Part shown: piece by piece, positions 1,300-16,246 of the stretch
Numbering within the stretch: the stretch's first letter is position 1
How the letters are laid out: each line of letters opens with the position of its first letter
Made by a program: the position numbers and the translations under genes
From: Naegleria gruberi
Lineage: Eukaryota
Length of the DNA: 16,246 nucleotides
Strand: one strand, 5' to 3'
Assembly: GCA_000004985.1 (NCBI GenBank)
Contig: GG738971.1
Notes under the pieces: model-generated
Told to the model about the DNA's origin: nothing
The model's input: only the letters and a program-made list of their open reading frames with translations
Databases searched by the model: none

Positions 1300-4200
1300 N
1301 NNNNNNNNNNNNNNNNNNNNNNNNNNNNNNNNNNNNNNNNNNNNNNNNNNNNNNNNNNNNNNNNNNNNNNNNNNNNNNNNNNNNNNNNNNNNNNNNNNNN
1401 NNNNNNNNNNNNNNNNNNNNNNNNNNNNNNNNNNNNNNNNNNNNNNNNNNNNNNNNNNNNNNNNNNNNNNNNNNNNNNNNNNNNNNNNNNNNNNNNNNNN
1501 NNNNNNNNNNNNNNNNNNNNNNNNNNNNNNNNNNNNNNNNNNNNNNNNNNNNNNNNNNNNNNNNNNNNNNNNNNNNNNNNNNNNNNNNNNNNNNNNNNNN
1601 NNNNNNNNNNNNNNNNNNNNNNNNNNNNNNNNNNNNNNNNNNNNNNNNNNNNNNNNNNNNNNNNNNNNNNNNNNNNNNNNNNNNNNNNNNNNNNNNNNNN
1701 NNNNNNNNNNNNNNNNNNNNNNNNNNNNNNNNNNNNNNNNNNNNNNNNNNNNNNNNNNNNNNNNNNNNNNNNNNNNNNNNNNNNNNNNNNNNNNNNNNNN
1801 NNNNNNNNNNNNNNNNNNNNNNNNNNNNNNNNNNNNNNNNNNNNNNNNNNNNNNNNNNNNNNNNNNNNNNNNNNNNNNNNNNNNNNNNNNNNNNNNNNNN
1901 NNNNNNNNNNNNNNNNNNNNNNNNNNNNNNNNNNNNNNNNNNNNNNNNNNNNNNNNNNNNNNNNNNNNNNNNNNNNNNNNNNNNNNNNNNNNNNNNNNNN
2001 NNNNNNNNNNNNNNNNNNNNNNNNNNNNNNNNNNNNNNNNNNNNNNNNNNNNNNNNNNNNNNNNNNNNNNNNNNNNNNNNNNNNNNNNNNNNNNNNNNNN
2101 NNNNNNNNNNNNNNNNNNNNNNNNNNNNNNNNNNNNNNNNNNNNNNNNNNNNNNNNNNNNNNNNNNNNNNNNNNNNNNNNNNNNNNNNNNNNNNNNNNNN
2201 NNNNNNNNNNNNNNNNNNNNNNNNNNNNNNNNNNNNNNNNNNNNNNNNNNNNNNNNNNNNNNNNNNNNNNNNNNNNNNNNNNNNNNNNNNNNNNNNNNNN
2301 NNNNNNNNNNNNNNNNNNNNNNNNNNNNNNNNNNNNNNNNNNNNNNNNNNNNNNNNNNNNNNNNNNNNNNNNNNNNNNNNNNNNNNNNNNNNNNNNNNNN
2401 NNNNNNNNNNNNNNNNNNNNNNNNNNNNNNNNNNNNNNNNNNNNNNNNNNNNNNNNNNNNNNNNNNNNNNNNNNNNNNNNNNNNNNNNNNNNNNNNNNNN
2501 NNNNNNNNNNNNNNNNNNNNNNNNNNNNNNNNNNNNNNNNNNNNNNNNNNNNNNNNNNNNNNNNNNNNNNNNNNNNNNNNNNNNNNNNNNNNNNNNNNNN
2601 NNNNNNNNNNNNNNNNNNNNNNNNNNNNNNNNNNNNNNNNNNNNNNNNNNNNNNNNNNNNNNNNNNNNNNNNNNNNNNNNNNNNNNNNNNNNNNNNNNNN
2701 NNNNNNNNNNNNNNNNNNNNNNNNNNNNNNNNNNNNNNNNNNNNNNNNNNNNNNNNNNNNNNNNNNNNNNNNNNNNNNNNNNNNNNNNNNNNNNNNNNNN
2801 NNNNNNNNNNNNNNNNNNNNNNNNNNNNNNNNNNNNNNNNNNNNNNNNNNNNNNNNNNNNNNNNNNNNNNNNNNNNNNNNNNNNNNNNNNNNNNNNNNNN
2901 NNNNNNNNNNNNNNNNNNNNNNNNNNNNNNNNNNNNNNNNNNNNNNNNNNNNNNNNNNNNNNNNNNNNNNNNNNNNNNNNNNNNNNNNNNNNNNNNNNNN
3001 NNNNNNNNNNNNNNNNNNNNNNNNNNNNNNNNNNNNNNNNNNNNNNNNNNNNNNNNNNNNNNNNNNNNNNNNNNNNNNNNNNNNNNNNNNNNNNNNNNNN
3101 NNNNNNNNNNNNNNNNNNNNNNNNNNNNNNNNNNNNNNNNNNNNNNNNNNNNNNNNNNNNNNNNNNNNNNNNNNNNNNNNNNNNNNNNNNNNNNNNNNNN
3201 NNNNNNNNNNNNNNNNNNNNNNNNNNNNNNNNNNNNNNNNNNNNNNNNNNNNNNNNNNNNNNNNNNNNNNNNNNNNNNNNNNNNNNNNNNNNNNNNNNNN
3301 NNNNNNNNNNNNNNNNNNNNNNNNNNNNNNNNNNNNNNNNNNNNNNNNNNNNNNNNNNNNNNNNNNNNNNNNNNNNNNNNNNNNNNNNNNNNNNNNNNNN
3401 NNNNNNNNNNNNNNNNNNNNNNNNNNNNNNNNNNNNNNNNNNNNNNNNNNNNNNNNNNNNNNNNNNNNNNNNNNNNNNNNNNNNNNNNNNNNNNNNNNNN
3501 NNNNNNNNNNNNNNNNNNNNNNNNNNNNNNNNNNNNNNNNNNNNNNNNNNNNNNNNNNNNNNNNNNNNNNNNNNNNNNNNNNNNNNNNNNNNNNNNNNNN
3601 NNNNNNNNNNNNNNNNNNNNNNNNNNNNNNNNNNNNNNNNNNNNNNNNNNNNNNNNNNNNNNNNNNNNNNNNNNNNNNNNNNNNNNNNNNNNNNNNNNNN
3701 NNNNNNNNNNNNNNNNNNNNNNNNNNNNNNNNNNNNNNNNNNNNNNNNNNNNNNNNNNNNNNNNNNNNNNNNNNNNNNNNNNNNNNNNNNNNNNNNNNNN
3801 NNNNNNNNNNNNNNNNNNNNNNNNNNNNNNNNNNNNNNNNNNNNNNNNNNNNNNNNNNNNNNNNNNNNNNNNNNNNNNNNNNNNNNNNNNNNNNNNNNNN
3901 NNNNNNNNNNNNNNNNNNNNNNNNNNNNNNNNNNNNNNNNNNNNNNNNNNNNNNNNNNNNNNNNNNNNNNNNNNNNNNNNNNNNNNNNNNNNNNNNNNNN
4001 NNNNNNNNNNNNNNNNNNNNNNNNNNNNNNNNNNNNNNNNNNNNNNNNNNNNNNNNNNNNNNNNNNNNNNNNNNNNNNNNNNNNNNNNNNNNNNNNNNNN
4101 NNNNNNNNNNNNNNNNNNNNNNNNNNNNNNNNNNNNNNNNNNNNNNNNNNNNNNNNNNNNNNNNNNNNNNNNNNNNNNNNNNNNNNNNNNNNNNNNNNNN

Positions 4201-6460
4201 NNNNNNNNNNNNNNNNNNNNNNNNNNNNNNNNNNNNNNNNNNNNNNNNNNNNNNNNNNNNNNNNNNNNNNNNNNNNNNNNNNNNNNNNNNNNNNNNNNNN
4301 NNNNNNNNNNNNNNNNNNNNNNNNNNNNNNNNNNNNNNNNNNNNNNNNNNNNNNNNNNNNNNNNNNNNNNNNNNNNNNNNNNNNNNNNNNNNNNNNNNNN
4401 NNNNNNNNNNNNNNNNNNNNNNNNNNNNNNNNNNNNNNNNNNNNNNNNNNNNNNNNNNNNNNNNNNNNNNNNNNNNNNNNNNNNNNNNNNNNNNNNNNNN
4501 NNNNNNNNNNNNNNNNNNNNNNNNNNNNNNNNNNNNNNNNNNNNNNNNNNNNNNNNNNNNNNNNNNNNNNNNNNNNNNNNNNNNNNNNNNNNNNNNNNNN
4601 NNNNNNNNNNNNNNNNNNNNNNNNNNNNNNNNNNNNNNNNNNNNNNNNNNNNNNNNNNNNNNNNNNNNNNNNNNNNNNNNNNNNNNNNNNNNNNNNNNNN
4701 NNNNNNNNNNNNNNNNNNNNNNNNNNNNNNNNNNNNNNNNNNNNNNNNNNNNNNNNNNNNNNNNNNNNNNNNNNNNNNNNNNNNNNNNNNNNNNNNNNNN
4801 NNNNNNNNNNNNNNNNNNNNNNNNNNNNNNNNNNNNNNNNNNNNNNNNNNNNNNNNNNNNNNNNNNNNNNNNNNNNNNNNNNNNNNNNNNNNNNNNNNNN
4901 NNNNNNNNNNNNNNNNNNNNNNNNNNNNNNNNNNNNNNNNNNNNNNNNNNNNNNNNNNNNNNNNNNNNNNNNNNNNNNNNNNNNNNNNNNNNNNNNNNNN
5001 NNNNNNNNNNNNNNNNNNNNNNNNNNNNNNNNNNNNNNNNNNNNNNNNNNNNNNNNNNNNNNNNNNNNNNNNNNNNNNNNNNNNNNNNNNNNNNNNNNNN
5101 NNNNNNNNNNNNNNNNNNNNNNNNNNNNNNNNNNNNNNNNNNNNNNNNNNNNNNNNNNNNNNNNNNNNNNNNNNNNNNNNNNNNNNNNNNNNNNNNNNNN
5201 NNNNNNNNNNNNNNNNNNNNNNNNNNNNNNNNNNNNNNNNNNNNNNNNNNNNNNNNNNNNNNNNNNNNNNNNNNNNNNNNNNNNNNNNNNNNNNNNNNNN
5301 NNNNNNNNNNNNNNNNNNNNNNNNNNNNNNNNNNNNNNNNNNNNNNNNNNNNNNNNNNNNNNNNNNNNNNNNNNNNNNNNNNNNNNNNNNNNNNNNNNNN
5401 NNNNNNNNNNNNNNNNNNNNNNNNNNNNNNNNNNNNNNNNNNNNNNNNNNNNNNNNNNNNNNNNNNNNNNNNNNNNNNNNNNNNNNNNNNNNNNNNNNNN
5501 NNNNNNNNNNNNNNNNNNNNNNNNNNNNNNNNNNNNNNNNNNNNNNNNNNNNNNNNNNNNNNNNNNNNNNNNNNNNNNNNNNNNNNNNNNNNNNNNNNNN
5601 NNNNNNNNNNNNNNNNNNNNNNNNNNNNNNNNNNNNNNNNNNNNNNNNNNNNNNNNNNNNNNNNNNNNNNNNNNNNNNNNNNNNNNNNNNNNNNNNNNNN
5701 NNNNNNNNNNNNNNNNNNNNNNNNNNNNNNNNNNNNNNNNNNNNNNNNNNNNNNNNNNNNNNNNNNNNNNNNNNNNNNNNNNNNNNNNNNNNNNNNNNNN
5801 NNNNNNNNNNNNNNNNNNNNNNNNNNNNNNNNNNNNNNNNNNNNNNNNNNNNNNNNNNNNNNNNNNNNNNNNNNNNNNNNNNNNNNNNNNNNNNNNNNNN
5901 NNNNNNNNNNNNNNNNNNNNNNNNNNNNNNNNNNNNNNNNNNNNNNNNNNNNNNNNNNNNNNNNNNNNNNNNNNNNNNNNNNNNNNNNNNNNNNNNNNNN
6001 NNNNNNNNNNNNNNNNNNNNNNNNNNNNNNNNNNNNNNNNNNNNNNNNNNNNNNNNNNNNNNNNNNNNNNNNNNNNNNNNNNNNNNNNNNNNNNNNNNNN
6101 NNNNNNNNNNNNNNNNNNNNNNNNNNNNNNNNNNNNNNNNNNNNNNNNNNNNNNNNNNNNNNNNNNNNNNNNNNNNNNNNNNNNNNNNNNNNNNNNNNNN
6201 NNNNNNNNNNNNNNNNNNNNNNNNNNNNNNNNNNNNNNNNNNNNNNNNNNNNNNNNNNNNNNNNNNNNNNNNNNNNNNNNNNNNNNNNNNNNNNNNNNNN
6301 NNNNNNNNNNNNNNNNNNNNNNNNNNNNNNNNNNNNNNNNNNNNNNNNNNNNNNNNNNNNNNNNNNNNNNNNNNNNNNNNNNNNNNNNNNNNNNNNNNNN
6401 NNNNNNNNNNNNNNNNNNNNNNNNNNNNNNNNNNNNNNNNNNNNNNNNNNNNNNNNNNNN
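1300..6460. other. N-masked block or assembly gap of 5161 nt. Nothing can be inferred here. The giant X-filled ORFs in the track are artefacts.
   Basis: A contiguous run of n characters. Confidence 1.
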
Positions 6461-8452
6461 ATTGTTCAAGTTATAATAATGTTTATTGGTCTGTTAGTTT
6501 ATTGCAAATGAGGGAAGATTCTGAAATTCATGGAAATATTTTGGCCACAGAAGTGACAGCTTCGAATTCAAAAATTTATGGAACTCTGATTATACCAGAT
6601 TCGGCAACGATGGTAACTATATTCGAAACTACTCAGTTCATGAATTTTACTAATTGGGATCCTTATTCACCATTTGTTGATTCGAAATGTATTTCTTCTC
6701 AATCAGTAGTTTCGTCTAATGTTTCTTCCAATTCGACTGTGGTTACAAACAGTTCAGTTTCAGTCAATCAAACTATTATTAATTCCAACTCGTCAATGAT
6801 TAAGAACAATACTGTTTACAATAGTACAGTATTAAATAATTCCACATTGAATAATTATTCATCAATAGTTAACACTACTCAAGTTTCTAATAATATTACA
6901 GTTGGTAATTCAACAACTTTATCAAATTCTACAAACGTATTGAATAATTCCTCAATGAGTGGTAATTCGACCTTTTCCAATTCTACTAATTATGGAAATG
7001 GCTCACTTTCGAATACAACACAAGTGGTTTCTAATAATGTTACAGTTGGTAATTCAACAACTTTATCAAATTCTACAAAAGTAATGAATAATTCCTCAAT
7101 GAATGGTAATTCAACATTTTCCAATTCTACTAATTATGGAAATGGCTCACTTTCGAATACAACACAGGTAGTTTCTAATAATAATACAGTTGGTAATTCT
7201 TCAAATTTATCAAATACTACGATTGTACTGAATAATTCCTCAATGGAAAGTAATTCTTCACAAACAATTTCCAATTCCACTGTTGCCAATACTACAAATA
7301 TTCACGGAAATGACTCACTGTCGAATACAACGCAAAATGTTGCTAATAATAATACACTAGGAAATTCCACACAATTACTGAATATTTCAATGAACAGCAA
7401 TAGTACAAGCAATTATTCCAGTATTACCAACTCTACTAATTATGGAAATGAATCATTTGTGAATTCAACAAATAATTCAGTGAACAGCACTACTAATTCT
7501 ACTTTTATGGGAAATAGTTCAAATATTTCACAACAAGTGAATACAACCACAAATTCATCAATTGGAGTTGTTGATAACGAAACGACTATTCTTATGAATG
7601 AAACAAATGTTTCGAATAATAGCATTGTTGAAACTAATCAAACTCTGAATAATTCACAAATTGTTAACGAAACATCAACAGAATCCAATAATAATGGAAC
7701 AATTCAAAACAACTCTTCCCAAACTATTATTTCCAATAATTCATCCATTGTTAACGAAACTTCCAATACTTCTAATACTACAGAACTAATTTCTAATAAC
7801 ACAATAAGTGATTCAAATAACACATTTATCAATCAGTCAACTGTGGAACATCAAAATTCAACACTTAATCAAACTCTAATTAACAATCAAACTACTTTTG
7901 GAAATAGTTCAGTAATTGAAGTTCAAAACCAGGTCAATCAAACATCAAATATCTCTAACAGCACAAACAACACTTTAATTATTAATTCAACAATTATTTC
8001 TAACAATACAATTTCCAATTATAGTAATTCAGTATTACCAAGTAATGTCACAAATAATTCGACATTATCAATCAATAATACAATTCTAAATAATCAAAGC
8101 ACTGTAAATTCAACAACATCTAACCTGAATAATGAAACATTCAATAATCAGAATTCCAGTTTAAATAATTGTGACAGACATGTCAATTGCTCAAATCATG
8201 GCGATTGTAATTCAGAAGGACAATGCATATGTTCTTCAAATTATGAAGAAGGTTTCTGGTCTGGAACTAAGTGTGAATTTTGTGCGATTAACTTTTATGG
8301 AAAATTATGTAATACTAAAATTGTTGGTCCAGCTTTGATTTCACCAGATTTTACAGGCGTTACATTTATATTACATTCTGCACAGATGAATGATTCAATT
8401 CCTTGTGAAAAGATTATCAATCCACTTGATTTATCTATTTTTGGAAGTAAGC
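6461..8452 (+). CDS. Internal fragment, open at both ends into masked sequence, of a secreted or surface glycoprotein. It is Asn/Ser/Thr-rich and hyper-sequon-dense, with tandem repeats and a C-terminal EGF-like module.
   Basis: A 664-codon open frame without stops from the mask edge at 6461 to the mask edge at 8452. The track's start at 6502 is a TTG; the first ATG is at 6508 and there is no signal peptide, so the real 5' end is probably upstream in the masked region. There are dozens of N-x-S/T sequons (NST, NSS, NTT, NIS, NVT, NQT, NET and others), repeated about 48-aa units, and an 8-Cys module CDRHVNCSNHGDCNSEGQCICSSNYEEGFWSGTKCEFCAINFYGKLC. Confidence 0.75.
6883..7338 (+). repeat. Coding tandem repeat of three nearly identical 144-bp (48-aa) units starting at 6883, 7027 and 7171. 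More degenerate copies lie upstream (about 6790) and downstream (7339 to about 7510).
   Basis: Units 1 and 2 differ at about 8 of 144 nt. Unit 3 is about 80% identical. The encoded unit is VSNN[IVN]TVGNSTTLSNSTNVLNNSSM[SN]GNSTFSNSTNYGNGSLSNTTQV. Confidence 0.85.
8170..8310 (+). other. EGF-like module with eight cysteines (laminin/tenascin-type spacing) at the C-terminal end of the visible glycoprotein fragment.
   Basis: The cysteine pattern C-x5-C-x5-C-x5-C-x-C-x13-C-x2-C-x8-C, with the conserved G and aromatic positions (HGDC, GQCIC, GFWSG, YG..C). Confidence 0.7.
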
Positions 8453-11400
8453 NNNNNNNNNNNNNNNNNNNNNNNNNNNNNNNNNNNNNNNNNNNNNNNN
8501 NNNNNNNNNNNNNNNNNNNNNNNNNNNNNNNNNNNNNNNNNNNNNNNNNNNNNNNNNNNNNNNNNNNNNNNNNNNNNNNNNNNNNNNNNNNNNNNNNNNN
8601 NNNNNNNNNNNNNNNNNNNNNNNNNNNNNNNNNNNNNNNNNNNNNNNNNNNNNNNNNNNNNNNNNNNNNNNNNNNNNNNNNNNNNNNNNNNNNNNNNNNN
8701 NNNNNNNNNNNNNNNNNNNNNNNNNNNNNNNNNNNNNNNNNNNNNNNNNNNNNNNNNNNNNNNNNNNNNNNNNNNNNNNNNNNNNNNNNNNNNNNNNNNN
8801 NNNNNNNNNNNNNNNNNNNNNNNNNNNNNNNNNNNNNNNNNNNNNNNNNNNNNNNNNNNNNNNNNNNNNNNNNNNNNNNNNNNNNNNNNNNNNNNNNNNN
8901 NNNNNNNNNNNNNNNNNNNNNNNNNNNNNNNNNNNNNNNNNNNNNNNNNNNNNNNNNNNNNNNNNNNNNNNNNNNNNNNNNNNNNNNNNNNNNNNNNNNN
9001 NNNNNNNNNNNNNNNNNNNNNNNNNNNNNNNNNNNNNNNNNNNNNNNNNNNNNNNNNNNNNNNNNNNNNNNNNNNNNNNNNNNNNNNNNNNNNNNNNNNN
9101 NNNNNNNNNNNNNNNNNNNNNNNNNNNNNNNNNNNNNNNNNNNNNNNNNNNNNNNNNNNNNNNNNNNNNNNNNNNNNNNNNNNNNNNNNNNNNNNNNNNN
9201 NNNNNNNNNNNNNNNNNNNNNNNNNNNNNNNNNNNNNNNNNNNNNNNNNNNNNNNNNNNNNNNNNNNNNNNNNNNNNNNNNNNNNNNNNNNNNNNNNNNN
9301 NNNNNNNNNNNNNNNNNNNNNNNNNNNNNNNNNNNNNNNNNNNNNNNNNNNNNNNNNNNNNNNNNNNNNNNNNNNNNNNNNNNNNNNNNNNNNNNNNNNN
9401 NNNNNNNNNNNNNNNNNNNNNNNNNNNNNNNNNNNNNNNNNNNNNNNNNNNNNNNNNNNNNNNNNNNNNNNNNNNNNNNNNNNNNNNNNNNNNNNNNNNN
9501 NNNNNNNNNNNNNNNNNNNNNNNNNNNNNNNNNNNNNNNNNNNNNNNNNNNNNNNNNNNNNNNNNNNNNNNNNNNNNNNNNNNNNNNNNNNNNNNNNNNN
9601 NNNNNNNNNNNNNNNNNNNNNNNNNNNNNNNNNNNNNNNNNNNNNNNNNNNNNNNNNNNNNNNNNNNNNNNNNNNNNNNNNNNNNNNNNNNNNNNNNNNN
9701 NNNNNNNNNNNNNNNNNNNNNNNNNNNNNNNNNNNNNNNNNNNNNNNNNNNNNNNNNNNNNNNNNNNNNNNNNNNNNNNNNNNNNNNNNNNNNNNNNNNN
9801 NNNNNNNNNNNNNNNNNNNNNNNNNNNNNNNNNNNNNNNNNNNNNNNNNNNNNNNNNNNNNNNNNNNNNNNNNNNNNNNNNNNNNNNNNNNNNNNNNNNN
9901 NNNNNNNNNNNNNNNNNNNNNNNNNNNNNNNNNNNNNNNNNNNNNNNNNNNNNNNNNNNNNNNNNNNNNNNNNNNNNNNNNNNNNNNNNNNNNNNNNNNN
10001 NNNNNNNNNNNNNNNNNNNNNNNNNNNNNNNNNNNNNNNNNNNNNNNNNNNNNNNNNNNNNNNNNNNNNNNNNNNNNNNNNNNNNNNNNNNNNNNNNNNN
10101 NNNNNNNNNNNNNNNNNNNNNNNNNNNNNNNNNNNNNNNNNNNNNNNNNNNNNNNNNNNNNNNNNNNNNNNNNNNNNNNNNNNNNNNNNNNNNNNNNNNN
10201 NNNNNNNNNNNNNNNNNNNNNNNNNNNNNNNNNNNNNNNNNNNNNNNNNNNNNNNNNNNNNNNNNNNNNNNNNNNNNNNNNNNNNNNNNNNNNNNNNNNN
10301 NNNNNNNNNNNNNNNNNNNNNNNNNNNNNNNNNNNNNNNNNNNNNNNNNNNNNNNNNNNNNNNNNNNNNNNNNNNNNNNNNNNNNNNNNNNNNNNNNNNN
10401 NNNNNNNNNNNNNNNNNNNNNNNNNNNNNNNNNNNNNNNNNNNNNNNNNNNNNNNNNNNNNNNNNNNNNNNNNNNNNNNNNNNNNNNNNNNNNNNNNNNN
10501 NNNNNNNNNNNNNNNNNNNNNNNNNNNNNNNNNNNNNNNNNNNNNNNNNNNNNNNNNNNNNNNNNNNNNNNNNNNNNNNNNNNNNNNNNNNNNNNNNNNN
10601 NNNNNNNNNNNNNNNNNNNNNNNNNNNNNNNNNNNNNNNNNNNNNNNNNNNNNNNNNNNNNNNNNNNNNNNNNNNNNNNNNNNNNNNNNNNNNNNNNNNN
10701 NNNNNNNNNNNNNNNNNNNNNNNNNNNNNNNNNNNNNNNNNNNNNNNNNNNNNNNNNNNNNNNNNNNNNNNNNNNNNNNNNNNNNNNNNNNNNNNNNNNN
10801 NNNNNNNNNNNNNNNNNNNNNNNNNNNNNNNNNNNNNNNNNNNNNNNNNNNNNNNNNNNNNNNNNNNNNNNNNNNNNNNNNNNNNNNNNNNNNNNNNNNN
10901 NNNNNNNNNNNNNNNNNNNNNNNNNNNNNNNNNNNNNNNNNNNNNNNNNNNNNNNNNNNNNNNNNNNNNNNNNNNNNNNNNNNNNNNNNNNNNNNNNNNN
11001 NNNNNNNNNNNNNNNNNNNNNNNNNNNNNNNNNNNNNNNNNNNNNNNNNNNNNNNNNNNNNNNNNNNNNNNNNNNNNNNNNNNNNNNNNNNNNNNNNNNN
11101 NNNNNNNNNNNNNNNNNNNNNNNNNNNNNNNNNNNNNNNNNNNNNNNNNNNNNNNNNNNNNNNNNNNNNNNNNNNNNNNNNNNNNNNNNNNNNNNNNNNN
11201 NNNNNNNNNNNNNNNNNNNNNNNNNNNNNNNNNNNNNNNNNNNNNNNNNNNNNNNNNNNNNNNNNNNNNNNNNNNNNNNNNNNNNNNNNNNNNNNNNNNN
11301 NNNNNNNNNNNNNNNNNNNNNNNNNNNNNNNNNNNNNNNNNNNNNNNNNNNNNNNNNNNNNNNNNNNNNNNNNNNNNNNNNNNNNNNNNNNNNNNNNNNN

Positions 11401-11876
11401 NNNNNNNNNNNNNNNNNNNNNNNNNNNNNNNNNNNNNNNNNNNNNNNNNNNNNNNNNNNNNNNNNNNNNNNNNNNNNNNNNNNNNNNNNNNNNNNNNNNN
11501 NNNNNNNNNNNNNNNNNNNNNNNNNNNNNNNNNNNNNNNNNNNNNNNNNNNNNNNNNNNNNNNNNNNNNNNNNNNNNNNNNNNNNNNNNNNNNNNNNNNN
11601 NNNNNNNNNNNNNNNNNNNNNNNNNNNNNNNNNNNNNNNNNNNNNNNNNNNNNNNNNNNNNNNNNNNNNNNNNNNNNNNNNNNNNNNNNNNNNNNNNNNN
11701 NNNNNNNNNNNNNNNNNNNNNNNNNNNNNNNNNNNNNNNNNNNNNNNNNNNNNNNNNNNNNNNNNNNNNNNNNNNNNNNNNNNNNNNNNNNNNNNNNNNN
11801 NNNNNNNNNNNNNNNNNNNNNNNNNNNNNNNNNNNNNNNNNNNNNNNNNNNNNNNNNNNNNNNNNNNNNNNNNNNN
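8453..11876. other. N-masked block or assembly gap of 3424 nt. It hides the 3' part of the glycoprotein gene and the 3' two-thirds of the NirK gene.
   Basis: A contiguous run of n characters. Confidence 1.
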
Positions 11877-12623
11877 ATACGAATGTTCCATTAATTTTGG
11901 ATCATCATCTGATGGTTCACAATAGAATTCACTTTGCATGACATAGAATTCCTTATCTACTTTTGGTAATCCCTCTTCTGGCTCAACTAACATTAATCCA
12001 TACATGCCATTACTTATGTGTGAAGGAACTGGACCTGCAGCACAGTGATAGATAAATAAACCTGAAGTTAATAATTTGAAAAATCCTGTTTTTTCTTCAT
12101 CTTTTTCAGCCAATAACATTTCTGCACCTCCTCCTGGTCCTGTCACACAGTGAAAATCAATATTGTGAGCCATACCGGTTTCGTCCAAGTTTAGGTAATT
12201 GACTTGCATGACATCTCCAACTCTTGCTCTGATAAATGGTCCAGGAACTGTTCCATTAAATGTCCAATATGGATACTTGTACTGTTTGCTGATTGGTTTC
12301 ACTTCAATTGTGGTATCTAGATTAACAACTAATTGAACTGGATAATCACGGTCAATTGGTGGAGGAATTCCAGGAGCTTTTGTTAAAATTGCTTCAACAA
12401 CTGGCAACTCCAAATTTAATTCAGGAGCTTTCTTGAATTTCTTCATCATATTTTCAGGAAACAAACTATGTTTCTTTTGTGTTTCTTGTGCTTCAAGTAA
12501 ACTATCACATTGGTATTTGTAGTATTGATAAACACCTGTTCCAACAGCACAGGTTAGACCTAGGGATAATGCAATGTCAAAAGTCTTTGGTTTGACAGTT
12601 CTTAGTCTGTGGAACAGTTTCAT
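11877..12623 (-). CDS. nirK: Copper-containing nitrite reductase (NirK, NO-forming). This is the 5' portion only: the N-terminal targeting/anchor extension plus cupredoxin domain I. Domain II lies in masked sequence.
   Basis: The ATG is at 12623-12621 on the minus strand. The translation contains the diagnostic NirK motifs WTFNGTVPGP, HNIDFH (T1Cu His and T2Cu His), YHCAAGPVPSHISNGMYG (His-Cys, His at +9 and Met at +5, which are the T2/T1 ligands) and KEFYVMQSEFY. These align with bacterial NirK (TFNGSVPGP / HNIDFHAATGALGGGA / [24 protein letters not shown] / KIYYVGEQDFY). The first roughly 90 aa (MKLFHRLRTVKPK + hydrophobic FDIALSLGLTCAVGTGVY...) have no bacterial counterpart. Confidence 0.9.
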
Positions 12624-12717
12624 TAGTGTTGTATTGTTATTTTTTAATTGAAATGTTGAATAAGACTTTTTTTATGATTCTTTGAATTTCCATTTGTCCT
12701 CAAACATAATCCCATTA

Positions 12718-12785
12718 CTGTGGTTACGCAATGAAGTGCAAGCAATTCTACAATGAAATGCAAGCAATTATTTTTTGAACTGCAA
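12718..12785. repeat. Left terminal inverted repeat (68 bp). It contains TGCAAGCAATT subrepeats at 12737-12747 and 12759-12769, and a degenerate third copy at 12781-12791.
   Basis: Its reverse complement equals 15859-15926 at 68 of 68 positions, checked base by base. Confidence 0.9.
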
Positions 12786-12959
12786 CGAATAATTTAATGA
12801 ATTGAAAGTTTCTTGAACCACAATTCTTAAAATAGATCAAAGAGAAGTCACACTGTAAGATCAAGCTGTAGTTCTGCTTGTTTCGAATATTGATAATGAA
12901 TTTGTTTATTATATAAGATATTTTGTATTGTTATTAAGATGATTGATCACTCTTCATGT

Positions 12960-15722
12960 TCATTGAATTTTCTTTCCGAAAATTGAATCCTCCCATGACT
13001 CATTAAATAATTCATCTAATTCTTCGTCATAATCGCCAAGCTCAATTTTAGAGCTCTTCTTGGGTTCAGATTGAAAACCTTCTGATTCCGAAAGTGGGCT
13101 TTGTGGTTCAAATTCTACTACATGTAAATGTTGCAATCTAGCAACAAGTATAGCTCTGTAATTTGAAATAGAAAATGGTTTGGTCATAATATCGACGGCA
13201 TCAGATAGTGAAAATCCTGCTGAAAGAAAATCCATTAGTAATACACAATAATCACCACAATGATTTCCATCCACTTGAATTTTTTTTTGTAATGTTTTTC
13301 GAACAGTCTTTGGTTTTACAATAAATGATGGCAACATTTCAAATAATTCACTAGTCTCTGATTCTATCACTGAAAAATCCTTAGCGAAAGAATCAAAAAG
13401 AAACCAATCAGTGGATTGACAATCATAGATTAGTAAGTACCAGTGTAATGATCTTGCCACAGGAAAAATTATAAATCCTTTTGATGTAAATTTCATACTC
13501 TTTGGTAAGTTTGTTTCTATGAATTTTTTGGATTGGTTAGTAACTCTTTGAGAGAAATCAGACGGTATGTATTGTAAATATTGTGAGCTGATTTTGGAAA
13601 AACAAATTCCAAATATATCAAAAGTATTTCCAGGTAAGAATACAGTGTCATCTTTGATAGTCTCCAATGCCTCAGTAGATAAAGTGATTGAACAAGCAAT
13701 TGTTTCTGTTGAAAGAACGTACAATTGTAGATTGGCAGCATTTTGTTGGATGTTATAGTTAAATTCTGTTTTGTTTTGTATGTGAAGTATTATTTTAGAT
13801 ATTTGTTCTACCTGTTTTTGGTCAAAATTTTCTTTCATGGAATCACTATCAATCCAAGGATTGTTTACATCATCTAAGATGGGATCTTGATCTAATTTCT
13901 CATCTGTCTCTACCTTAACTGATGGTGTAGGTAGTTCTACATAGAATTGACCAATACACATAGGATTAAATTCTCTGATATATAAATCATACAAATCATT
14001 ATTCATTTTCAGTGAAGCTCTGACATACTTCAAGTATTCCTCTTCTGAATCATAATTCCAAATATCCATTAAACATTTTCTAAAACTGTTTACAATCACA
14101 TCTGGATTCATGTTAGAAATAATCTGCTCAAATGCTGCATTTCTTGATTTTCTATCAGAATTAGAATTATTCTTTTTCCAATCAGCTAATTCTCTTTTTG
14201 CATATCTGAAACACATATTATCCAATGGTGATTGATGGTGCCCACCTACAGGAAGTAAAATGTTAATTCTATTATGTTGTTTCAAAATCTTTTGAACTGA
14301 TTTACACTTATGATGAGAGAGATTATCCCATAATAAAATGTCTCCTTCTTTTGAATTAGGAATATAAACTTTTTCAACCCATTGCTCAATATGTTCAATA
14401 TGAACACCAGCAATTTTTTCCTCAACAGTTACCTTATTACCATTAATAGTTGATTTCTTTCCTGGCACTGACTCAACAATAGACACTGGTAATACACCTC
14501 CTTCTGCCGTTACAGCAACTAAAAAAGTATCCTTAATATCATCAGCCAATTGTAAAACAACTGCATCATCGTCCTTGATTGGAGTATTTGTTCTTTCCGT
14601 CGCCTTAGTATTTGTTCCAGTTTCATCAAAAACCACAATTTTACTTCTATCAATGGATTTTAAATTTCTAAACATTATTGCTGCATAGAAGCAATAATAA
14701 TAGTAGGTTCTATATAATTGCTCATAAGCTGTTTCAATTCTTTCTCTCTTGGTAATTGTTGTTTTGATCTTCCTTTTATAAAGAAACTTCTTGGAAAATT
14801 TGGAAATATAATCTACTGAAGGTGTTTTCTTTAATCCTGCAACTTCCTTCATTATTTCTCCAAGTCTTATATTACTAACTTGTTTTTTCTCACTCCGTTC
14901 CTTACGAGTAATATCAATAACCTGTAAAATTTGGTCTTTCAATAATAATGGAGGTGGGTGACCACGTTCAACCTTTAATGTTAGTTCATTCCTCTTGCAT
15001 GCCGATAAATATCTGCTAAATTGTGAAGGTGAGATATTATTTTGTTTAGCAAATTCCTGTTGTGATCCACGGTCGGGTGTTGAATATTGTTCTTTATACT
15101 TCTCAACAAGTTTAATTTGTTCTTCTCTTGTTTTTTGAACATAACCAACTTTTCTTTTGTTTTTAAACCCTATCAATACTATTTTATCATCAGGATTTTC
15201 CTTTTTTTCTGTCTCCTCCAGGTTTACCAGTTTTGCTTTCTTTGCTTGACTTTCATTGTATGTTTCTTGATTCCGTTCAACAATTAATAGGGCTTTTTTT
15301 TTGATGTTGTCTTCGAATGACTCATCTCTTTCATCCGTCTCTTCCTCAACAGAAGAACAAATTCTAGTTACCAATTTTGCTACCAGAGCATCTTTTCTAA
15401 GATTACCTCCTGTCTCTCCAAATTCACTCTTCAAAAACTCCTTCAAAAACTTGACATTTTTCATTGTCAATTGATCACGGATTGCCTCTTCCACATTCTC
15501 AAACTTTCGTTTTGTTCCTTTTTTTAGCTTCTTTGGTTTTTCTTCTTTTTTCTTGCCTGGTGTTTTTTCATCTTTCTTTTTACTGGGTGTGTTATCTGGT
15601 TGATCTTGTGTACAGGTCCATGAAGGAACTTGAGATACTGAAGGTAGCAAATCTATTAAATTGCTATAGCTGGAGAAGCTTTGTGGTGAAGTGTCATAGC
15701 TACTCGATTGCTTGTTTGACAT
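12960..15722 (-). CDS. Transposase fused to a Ulp1-like protease. From the N terminus: a basic NLS-like region, CENP-B/pogo-type HTH domains, a DDE_1 catalytic core, and a C-terminal Ulp1/C48 cysteine peptidase domain. It is 920 aa long and ends with a TGA stop.
   Basis: Residues 47-73 are KKKDEKTPGKKKEEKPKKLKKGTKRK. HTH-like segments lie around aa 195-300. The DDE_1 motifs are VVFDETG (D366), ILLWDNLSHH (D466) and QSPLDNMCFRYAK (D501), which gives D-D-35-D spacing and the pogo DNxxH / QPLD signatures. The Ulp1 motifs are SLHWYLLIYD (H760), WFLFDS (D777) and KIQVDGNHCGDYC (Q816, C822), with His-Asp spacing of 17 and Gln-Cys spacing of 6 as in Ulp1. Confidence 0.9.
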   Translation of the reverse strand: MSNKQSSSYDTSPQSFSSYSNLIDLLPSVSQVPSWTCTQDQPDNTPSKKKDEKTPGKKKEEKPKKLKKGTKRKFENVEEAIRDQLTMKNVKFLKEFLKSEFGETGGNLRKDALVAKLVTRICSSVEEETDERDESFEDNIKKKALLIVERNQETYNESQAKKAKLVNLEETEKKENPDDKIVLIGFKNKRKVGYVQKTREEQIKLVEKYKEQYSTPDRGSQQEFAKQNNISPSQFSRYLSACKRNELTLKVERGHPPPLLLKDQILQVIDITRKERSEKKQVSNIRLGEIMKEVAGLKKTPSVDYISKFSKKFLYKRKIKTTITKRERIETAYEQLYRTYYYYCFYAAIMFRNLKSIDRSKIVVFDETGTNTKATERTNTPIKDDDAVVLQLADDIKDTFLVAVTAEGGVLPVSIVESVPGKKSTINGNKVTVEEKIAGVHIEHIEQWVEKVYIPNSKEGDILLWDNLSHHKCKSVQKILKQHNRINILLPVGGHHQSPLDNMCFRYAKRELADWKKNNSNSDRKSRNAAFEQIISNMNPDVIVNSFRKCLMDIWNYDSEEEYLKYVRASLKMNNDLYDLYIREFNPMCIGQFYVELPTPSVKVETDEKLDQDPILDDVNNPWIDSDSMKENFDQKQVEQISKIILHIQNKTEFNYNIQQNAANLQLYVLSTETIACSITLSTEALETIKDDTVFLPGNTFDIFGICFSKISSQYLQYIPSDFSQRVTNQSKKFIETNLPKSMKFTSKGFIIFPVARSLHWYLLIYDCQSTDWFLFDSFAKDFSVIESETSELFEMLPSFIVKPKTVRKTLQKKIQVDGNHCGDYCVLLMDFLSAGFSLSDAVDIMTKPFSISNYRAILVARLQHLHVVEFEPQSPLSESEGFQSEPKKSSKIELGDYDEELDELFNESWEDSIFGKKIQ
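13113..13625 (-). other. Ulp1 / SUMO-protease-like cysteine peptidase domain (C48 family) at the transposase C-terminus.
   Basis: The catalytic His-Asp-(Gln)-Cys arrangement HWYLL...FLFDS...QVDGNHCGDYC has canonical spacing and is followed by an acidic tail. Confidence 0.75.
14088..14690 (-). other. DDE_1 (pogo/Tigger/Fot1-type) catalytic domain of the transposase.
   Basis: The D366 / D466 / D501 triad lies within the characteristic motifs DETG, LLxDNxxxH and LPxxxxxxxSPLD. Confidence 0.8.
14823..15140 (-). other. Helix-turn-helix DNA-binding region of the transposase, of the CENP-B/pogo N-terminal type (two HTH units).
   Basis: Segments QQEFAKQNNISPSQFSRYLSACKR and HPPPLLLKDQILQVIDITRKERSEKKQVSNIRLGEIMKEV resemble psq/HTH_Tnp_Tc5-like helices. 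This is assigned by pattern, not by alignment. Confidence 0.5.
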
Positions 15723-15797
15723 TTTATAAATTTATTGCTTCTTCTGCTGATTGGAAGTTTTGATGTGTGTTTTGCAAGTTTCTTGATCAAAGTGGAA

Positions 15798-15804
15798 ATT
15801 TATA
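15798..15804 (-). promoter_or_regulatory. Candidate TATA box (TATAAAT on the minus strand) about 76-82 nt upstream of the transposase ATG, inside the element.
   Basis: The motif appears on visual inspection in the 136-bp region between the right TIR and the ATG. This region is AT-rich, so specificity is low. Confidence 0.2.
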
Positions 15805-15858
15805 TTTAGACTTTCTTGCAGTTCGTCAGCAAGTAATTGTACTACATTGTAGAATTGC

Positions 15859-15926
15859 TTGCAGTTCAAAAAATAATTGCTTGCATTTCATTGTAGAATT
15901 GCTTGCACTTCATTGCGTAACCACAG
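15859..15926. repeat. Right terminal inverted repeat (68 bp). It contains AATTGCTTGCA subrepeats at 15853-15863, 15875-15885 and 15897-15907, which is 22-bp phasing.
   Basis: It is a perfect reverse complement of 12718-12785. The internal 19-bp CATTGTAGAATTGCTTGCA occurs at 15845-15863 and 15889-15907. Confidence 0.9.
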
Positions 15927-16246
15927 TAGTACAGAGAACGGCTGTTTTTTAAAATATATAAAAAAGGTTCTGAGCGATGGATTATGATTTATTGGATTAT
16001 GAATTGATATTTAGAGTATTTGGATAATTGGATGTTGCTCATTGTTAAGTTCAGTTTAATTTTTGATTAATTTGAATTCAAAAAATTGGCCAAGTCTCCA
16101 GGGAATCGATCTCGTAGGATTCTGGTGTTGTTGGCTTGTTGTTTATTCAATTCAATGACAAACTGTATGGGGTTCACATAAAAAATTCCCAGAGATGGGT
16201 TGAGCTTTGCTTAATTGCTTGTGCATGTAATGAATAGTTACTGAAA

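Follow-up and report, generated by a model that had tools for sequence, protein, structure and literature searches.

A class II copper nitrite reductase gene of Naegleria gruberi and the predicted mitochondrial destination of its product

Does the amoeba Naegleria gruberi possess a copper nitrite reductase (NirK) of its own, where in the cell would its N-terminal leader take it, and what would it do there? These questions are raised by a 16,246-bp scaffold of this organism (contig GG738971.1 of assembly GCA_000004985.1), the whole of which is called the window here. On its minus strand, a reading frame begins with an ATG at 12621-12623 and stays open for 249 codons down to 11877. Two runs of N interrupt the window (1300-6460 and 8453-11876), the second of which cuts nirK after codon 249; to judge by the 389 amino acids of a reference allele, that run also hides the end of the gene, which is expected near 11454. 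Upstream, the frame is closed by a TAA 17 codons before the ATG, and no competing open reading frame (ORF) of at least 60 amino acids was found on the strand opposite nirK. We consider it probable that this is a nuclear class II nirK gene of N. gruberi, an allele or recent duplicate of an annotated gene, whose product is imported by means of its leader and held by an inner-membrane anchor in the mitochondrial intermembrane space. The parts of the frame by which the enzyme was recognized are as follows.

11877..12623, minus strand: nirK coding sequence, codons 1-249 (open frame, NirK match, 99% identity to XP_002674759)
11877..12407, minus strand: cupredoxin domain I and start of the inter-domain region, residues 73-249 (TIGR02376, Cu-oxidase_3 and AniA alignment)
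12150..12167, minus strand: HNIDFH, residues 153-158, with type-1 copper ligand His153, catalytic Asp156 and type-2 copper ligand His158 (sequence; aligned to HNVDFH of AniA)
12003..12047, minus strand: H193-C194...H202....M207, with type-2 copper ligand His193 and type-1 copper ligands Cys194, His202 and Met207 (sequence, AniA alignment)

The visible translation matched the NCBIfam model TIGR02376 (Cu_nitrite_red) over residues 73-239 (E=1.6e-49, 169 bits) and Pfam Cu-oxidase_3 over residues 115-217, and it aligned without a gap to Neisseria AniA (1kbv) over residues 72-236 (E=8.9e-55). By these measures, the match to the NirK family is far beyond chance. Class II enzymes (AniA, Ralstonia pickettii, Pseudoalteromonas) outscored class I by about 30 orders of magnitude, the E-value being 1.3e-52 for R. 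pickettii, close behind AniA, and about 1e-23 for class I, and the spacing of the type-1 copper loop (C-x7-H-x4-M) is that of class II, the same as in AniA. By these alignments, the visible part of nirK encodes cupredoxin domain I of a copper nitrite reductase of class II, the AniA type. A preliminary description, made from the letters of the window alone, had reported that all copper ligands of domain I are present at the bacterial spacing, and the alignment bears this out, with HNIDFH and H193-C194-x7-H202-x4-M207 placed as in AniA. The type-1 copper site is complete (His153, Cys194, His202 and Met207), two of the three type-2 ligands are visible (His158 and His193), and the third histidine falls in the run of N. 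Across 102 aligned sequences, neither the copper ligands nor the catalytic Asp varied.

The closest database match was N. gruberi XP_002674759.1 (EFC42015.1, NAEGRDRAFT_50708, UniProt D2VM78), a protein of 389 amino acids that was 99% identical over 100% of the query and that UniProt names 'Copper-containing nitrite reductase'. The two proteins are alike in leader and ligands over 249 residues and differ at two of them, A18V and Q49P. NAEGRDRAFT_50708 sits on a 381,539-bp contig, while the window copy sits on its own 16,246-bp scaffold. Because the 99%-identical reference gene lies on another contig, we count the window gene as a second copy of nirK which, on this comparison, either represents the other haplotype, as an allele, or arose from NAEGRDRAFT_50708 by very recent duplication. 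Domain II can be read in the reference allele (P0001), where His298 is the catalytic histidine and His349 the third type-2 ligand; both histidines align to AniA and are invariant. In NirK, domain I contributes two histidines to the type-2 site and domain II of the adjacent subunit contributes one, and the catalytic Asp and His next to this copper distinguish the family from other multicopper oxidases. The reference protein matched AniA in the PDB with E=4.9e-94, and its AlphaFold2 model, with a mean predicted local distance difference test (pLDDT) score of 92, gave target-normalised TM-scores to AniA of 0.94-0.96 for the monomer fold. Relative to Neisseria gonorrhoeae AniA (1kbv, 5tb7, 5ue6), Naegleria NirK is about 48-50% identical, with a gap-free core, the same copper spacing and the same catalytic Asp and His; unlike AniA, it has an internal helix within a leader of 72 residues, and its reference allele ends in a C-terminal CxxCKLH tail without counterpart in AniA. 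AniA itself depends on a bacterial lipoprotein signal for its export and remains attached to the outer membrane.

We then asked how this gene compares with its relatives inside and outside the eukaryotes. With one genome per species for 185,579 prokaryotic species, the top prokaryotic match to NirK was 57% identical, and eukaryotic orthologues were 56-77% identical to the window protein. Intact nirK orthologues, 74-77% identical in the core, lie on eukaryotic contigs of N. lovaniensis and of a second Naegleria-like organism; these are single-exon genes, since the length of each equals three times its number of amino acids plus three. When the window was compared by tblastx with the loci of N. 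lovaniensis and the second Naegleria-like organism, nirK alone matched and no conserved flank was found, much of the window being N.

The surroundings of nirK also look eukaryotic. A C2-domain gene on the plus strand (805-1299) contains a 52-nucleotide GT-AG phase-1 intron at 1121-1172, and removing this intron raised the Pfam C2 score from 53 to 64 bits and extended the coverage from positions 2-80 to positions 2-102 of 104. Composition is much the same in nirK and the neighbouring ORF, with a G+C content of 36% versus 32%, a G+C content at third codon positions of 0.25 versus 0.24 and a codon-fraction correlation of r=0.88. The earlier claim of an intron-containing neighbourhood of matching composition thus held on both counts.

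A neighbor-joining tree of 188 sequences (292 columns, 100 bootstraps) included eukaryotic NirK from Naegleria, fungi, a chytrid, nematodes and EukProt protists. All 29 named eukaryotic NirK sequences fell into one clade that held no named bacterium, with a weak bootstrap value of 40, and Naegleria-type sequences clustered together (bootstrap 57). The grouping of the eukaryotic clade with a tail-bearing set of bacterial sequences, Planctomycetota and Omnitrophota among them, was supported at 99%. Naegleria NirK was not nested in the clade of any single bacterial species. Eukaryotic nirK has reportedly been under discussion since the work of Kim et al. in 2009. The preliminary description had proposed an ancient horizontal acquisition, which is one of the published readings; inheritance from the mitochondrial ancestor is the other. 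Our tree is consistent with Pold et al. 2024 (PMC10999283), who placed the NirKs of Naegleria fowleri and other protists with fungal clade 1g, and with Woehle et al. 2018 (PMC6783311). NirK of Naegleria is therefore already known, being named in UniProt and present in a published tree (PMC10999283), and the preliminary description, correct in substance, contains no new finding.

Because its neighbour is spliced, its codon usage matches, other Naegleria have orthologues, no bacterium exceeds 57% identity and its place in the tree agrees, nirK is a genuine eukaryotic gene. We reject bacterial contamination of the assembly, as had the preliminary description, and regard it and a very recent transfer from one bacterial species as next to impossible. 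While nirK has no intron and its family is mainly bacterial, both of which such an origin would share, the identity of 57% to the top prokaryote against 56-77% to eukaryotic orthologues speaks against it, as do flanks made up of the spliced C2-domain gene, an N-glycoprotein-like gene and a eukaryotic-type transposon, codon usage that agrees between nirK and its neighbours, and sigma-70-type promoter and terminator signals in the window that were not above chance. Scans of the whole window for Rfam families, tRNAs and bacterial promoters and terminators yielded no finding.

If the enzyme belongs to the amoeba, its leader should indicate where it works. The conserved core begins at residue 73, and so the leader is 72 residues long; alignments with bacterial enzymes begin at residues 72-76. 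Three parts can be told apart.

12582..12623, minus strand: residues 1-14, MKLFHRLRTVKPKT, basic and acid-free, with 5 Lys/Arg and 1 His (sequence)
12519..12581, minus strand: residues 15-35, FDIALSLGLTCAVGTGVYQYY, moderately hydrophobic helix, predicted membrane anchor or sorting segment (Kyte-Doolittle, Hessa, AlphaFold2)
12408..12518, minus strand: residues 36-72, charged linker from anchor to core, without alignment to bacterial enzymes (profile and AniA alignments)

The preliminary description had placed the basic residues (K2, H5, R6, R8, K11, K13) and the hydrophobic segment (15-35) correctly. Its figure of about 90 amino acids absent from bacterial enzymes was too high, the leader having 72 residues and bacteria having a signal-peptide region of ~32 residues at the same place. 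Residues 15-35 gave a value of 1.55 in a 17-residue Kyte-Doolittle window, and AlphaFold2 modelled a helix over residues 14-44 preceded by low-confidence coil at residues 1-13. On a rough Hessa-scale sum, residues 15-35 of NirK scored +5.7, within a range of +4.3 to +6.6 for the eukaryotic helices, whereas the bacterial signal peptides ranged from -2.5 to +2.2. By this rough measure, the eukaryotic helices are far less hydrophobic than bacterial signal peptides, which is the direction expected of mitochondrial sorting segments and not of signal anchors of the endoplasmic reticulum (ER). A soluble form started at the internal Met59 or Met60 was considered and rejected, these methionines not being conserved in orthologues.

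Leaders differ in kind between the bacterial and eukaryotic members of the family. All 18 bacterial subclade members with complete N-termini have a classical signal peptide at the position of the leader; their hydrophobic core starts at about residue 6, the linker is 9 residues long, and a median of 32 residues precedes the conserved core. A basic stretch followed by a helix was found in 34 of the 76 eukaryote-clade homologues. In this long-leader group, the medians were 83.5 residues before the core, a helix that starts at residue 21 and a linker of 40 residues, with 5 basic and 0 acidic residues ahead of the helix. Many of the long leaders, from fungi, nematodes and protists, have a 40-60-residue, Arg-rich and acid-poor presequence in front of the helix, which by its composition is obviously of mitochondrial type. 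The other 42 homologues have short N-termini without a helix, and these models, many fungal ones included, are probably truncated. One heterolobosean model, P0002, starts inside the hydrophobic segment, and its ORF extends 40 codons further upstream (L002, about 9881-10000) to an ATG; the extended N-terminus, MNTIPRFFKSVSSSLHHRVWSSFKKRVPNTKTAFGWTSVGLGMGSLYLF, regains the basic stretch and the helix (MNTIPRFFKSVSSSLHHRVWSSFKKRVPNTKTAFGWTSVGLG...). With P0002 extended in this way, the leader design is conserved in kind across the heteroloboseans.

What could such a leader accomplish? We suggest that the 72-residue leader, with its short basic stretch, weakly hydrophobic helix and linker of ~40 residues, took the place of the export signal of bacteria. 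The protein would be imported into mitochondria, where the helix would become anchored in the inner membrane and the enzyme would come to lie in the intermembrane space, which corresponds to the periplasm where bacterial NirK works and which contains cytochrome c. There, NirK would form a trimer in which an electron enters at the type-1 copper and crosses the Cys194-His193 bridge to the type-2 copper at the subunit interface, and nitrite bound at the type-2 copper would be protonated by Asp and His, with nitric oxide (NO) released as the product.

With fungi and Acanthamoeba as models, we regard anchoring in the intermembrane space as the best inference. Work cited in PMC4686598 places Fusarium NirK in the mitochondria, the experimental mitochondrial proteome of Acanthamoeba contains a NirK whose function is described as unknown (PMC13632651), and an intermembrane-space location has been proposed for foraminiferal NirK (PMC6783311).

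Several observations weigh against the reading of the gene as an intact nirK with a mitochondrial product. Regarding the gene, codons from 250 on are masked by the run of N, so that intactness can be read for 249 codons only, and the full reference NirK scored 288.8 bits on TIGR02376 (model positions 3-321 of 326), which falls just short of the curated cut-off (296.3). We attribute the missing 7.5 bits to the eukaryotic clade having diverged from a bacterial model, since none of the defining residues is absent. Regarding the leader, residues 1-14 are very short, and their helical moment of 0.34 compares to a shuffle mean of 0.32 and was reached by 42% of shuffles; an amphipathic helix in the basic stretch was thus not significant, in what is a weak test on so short a segment. 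A close relative on a 4.5-kb ENA contig, P0004, begins with an ER-like signal peptide, MKGIIRFCLVLLLCGIFTCNVGA, and has a Gly-rich helix further on; its organism may target the protein by another route, or the gene model may be an artefact. Type II signal anchors of the secretory pathway are, moreover, built in the same way as the N. gruberi leader, with a helix after a basic stretch. Neither XP_002674759 nor its locus tag or UniProt identifier was found in the examined part of the N. gruberi mitochondrial and peroxisomal proteome table (PMC8134430). Finally, no functional study of NirK, nitrite reductase, NO reductase or denitrification in Naegleria turned up in a literature search, and a systems paper on N. 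fowleri mentions neither nitrite nor NO.

The points on the leader are shared by a secretory explanation, in which NirK is held by a type II signal anchor and faces the lumen of the ER or Golgi or the exterior, where it might, for example, act on nitrite from ingested bacteria in phagosomes. The positive-inside arrangement of 5 Lys/Arg ahead of the helix fits a signal anchor equally well, and the missing amphipathic moment, the signal-peptide-like start of P0004 and the absence from the examined part of the proteome table would all agree with it. We nevertheless consider this destination unlikely, as the helix is weakly hydrophobic by comparison with the family's bacterial signal peptides (a Hessa sum of +5.7 against -2.5 to +2.2), many eukaryote-clade homologues carry the long Arg-rich presequences typical of mitochondrial import, and NirK is mitochondrial by experiment in Fusarium (PMC4686598) and in Acanthamoeba (PMC13632651). 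The mitochondrial presequence and anchor of the preliminary description are plausible: the design recurs in 34 of 76 homologues and has the Fusarium and Acanthamoeba precedents, but residues 1-14 have no significant amphipathic moment and the protein was not seen in the examined portion of the table. The arrangement itself (short basic stretch, weak helix, linker of ~40 residues), which recurs in eukaryotic NirK, amounts to a testable prediction of localisation.

The physiological role of a mitochondrial NirK is a separate question. Fungal NirK is reported to be coupled to the mitochondrial respiratory chain and to ATP synthesis in PMC4686598, which cites Kobayashi 1996 and Kim 2009. By extension, an inner-membrane NirK in Naegleria might be fed by cytochrome c and use nitrite, with production of NO, under hypoxia, and its CxxCxxH tail, which outside the eukaryotes would be confined to a bacterial subclade of Planctomycetota/Omnitrophota type, might add an extra, lineage-specific metal or redox site; we put this combination forward tentatively. 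If it is true, a nominally aerobic amoeba has a working nitrite-reducing branch of its mitochondrial respiratory chain. The preliminary description had gone as far as an organellar denitrification step, and this found no supporting evidence, as neither a NO reductase partner nor a nitrite-dependent activity is known for Naegleria; to pass from a NirK with a leader to organellar denitrification is an inferential step.

Alternatively, NirK could be mitochondrial without serving respiration, its NO acting as a hypoxia signal or its activity removing toxic nitrite, with no energy conserved and no dedicated NO reductase. This we find plausible, if short of probable. It differs from the reading that we prefer in physiological role alone and would suit an Acanthamoeba mitochondrial NirK for which the function is stated to be unknown (PMC13632651) and the literature searched, in which no Naegleria NO reductase was found, but the fungal enzyme is coupled to respiration and ATP synthesis (PMC4686598). 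As a discovery, the gene matters little, given its annotation, the published phylogeny and the experimental finding of NirK in Acanthamoeba mitochondria. It is the physiology that matters, that is, whether NirK in amoebae serves energy conservation, signalling by NO or nitrite removal, and what becomes of the NO. As the same gene is present in the pathogen N. fowleri, the question is of some interest to medicine as well.

Three eukaryotic systems can be set beside that of Naegleria. Fungal NirK has reportedly been studied by Kobayashi and Shoun in 1995 and by Kim et al. in 2009. The enzymes of Fusarium oxysporum and other fungi (clade 1g) share with Naegleria NirK the eukaryote-containing clade, the CxxCKLH tail and 55-63% identity; whereas fungal NirK has been purified, is active and respiration-coupled and has P450nor as a partner (PMC4686598), Naegleria NirK is known here from its sequence. 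Acanthamoeba castellanii (AcMitoCarta, PMC13632651) is, from its description, similar in being a free-living amoeba whose aerobic mitochondrion has anaerobic extras and a NirK, although Acanthamoeba belongs to the Amoebozoa and Naegleria to the Discoba, which are different supergroups. Foraminiferal NirK (Globobulimina; PMC6783311, PMC8153729) is likewise encoded by a eukaryote and was likewise proposed to reside in the intermembrane space; in contrast with Naegleria NirK, it forms a separate deep clade, 1b, of independent origin, has introns and is accompanied by a Nor homologue and measured denitrification.

The C-terminal tail mentioned above is a feature in its own right. Its pattern, C-x-x-C-x-x-H (C382, C385 and H388; residues 382-388 of P0001), is invariant in 102 aligned members of the subclade, taking the form CxxCKLH in eukaryotes and CxGCLVHP in bacteria (Planctomycetota, Omnitrophota and others; also L004-L007). 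We rejected it as a eukaryote-specific feature because bacterial members of the subclade carry the latter form. The AlphaFold2 pLDDT exceeds 90 at the tail, PDB alignments end at residues 373-379, no solved structure reaches it, and a literature search for a description found none. The tail may constitute an extra metal or redox site.

Immediately upstream of nirK lies a 3.2-kb DNA transposon of the Tc1/mariner-IS630 type, whose parts, with the terminal inverted repeats (TIRs) named as such, are these.

12716-15928: the transposon as a whole
12718-12785 and 15859-15926: TIRs, perfect, 68 nucleotides
12716-12717 and 15927-15928: TA flanks
12960-15722, minus strand: transposon ORF of 920 amino acids, within the TIRs
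12624..12717, minus strand: remaining 5' region of nirK, 94 bp from the start codon to the transposon end

The 920-amino-acid ORF that adjoins nirK is 100% identical to an N. gruberi protein. It matched an IS630-family transposase model (1.4e-14) and DDE_3 (5.8e-5), both under the curated cut-offs, and a word-indexed protein search with it recovered no further relative. The transposon may have displaced the nirK promoter or affect it, and it may be the reason for which this haplotype was assembled separately.

This bears on whether the window copy works at all. It could be an unmerged haplotype fragment, or a truncated or silenced duplicate with a promoter displaced by the transposon, NAEGRDRAFT_50708 being the functional gene. 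Such a copy might well sit on a 16-kb scaffold apart from the 381,539-bp contig of the reference gene, differ from it at only two of 249 residues, have a transposon with perfect 68-nucleotide repeats end 94 bp upstream of its ATG and have the 3' third of its sequence unreadable under the run of N. In addition, the 90% cluster of the reference protein has a single member, and therefore no protein from the window copy is present in that collection. On the other hand, all 249 visible codons are open with the catalytic residues all retained, A18V and Q49P are conservative or lie within the non-conserved leader, and two differences in 249 residues are compatible with allelic variation in a heterozygous genome. 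We accordingly think it improbable that the window copy is dead, and continue to regard it as an allele or recent duplicate that could encode the enzyme.

Between the two runs of N, the plus-strand frame 6463-8452 is open for 663 codons and unusual in composition, with 22% Asn, 33% Ser+Thr and 95 N-x-S/T sequons. It includes a 144-nucleotide tandem repeat at 6882-7256 (2.6 copies, 90% matches), and its end is Cys-rich and EGF-like. The sequence suggests a protein with dense N-glycosylation that is secreted or sits at the cell surface.

Lastly, NirK was also encountered in plant-parasitic and fungus-feeding nematodes (Ditylenchus, Aphelenchoides and Panagrolaimus; P0008, P0010, P0011 and P0029) on contigs of at least 200 kb, and a literature search for nematode NirK returned nothing relevant. 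The nematode leaders consist of an Arg-rich presequence and a helix and are of the mitochondrial type. In Ditylenchus destructor, nirK contains introns, because 3,146 bp (L084, 6001-9146) encode 420 amino acids, and a P450 gene lies upstream of it.

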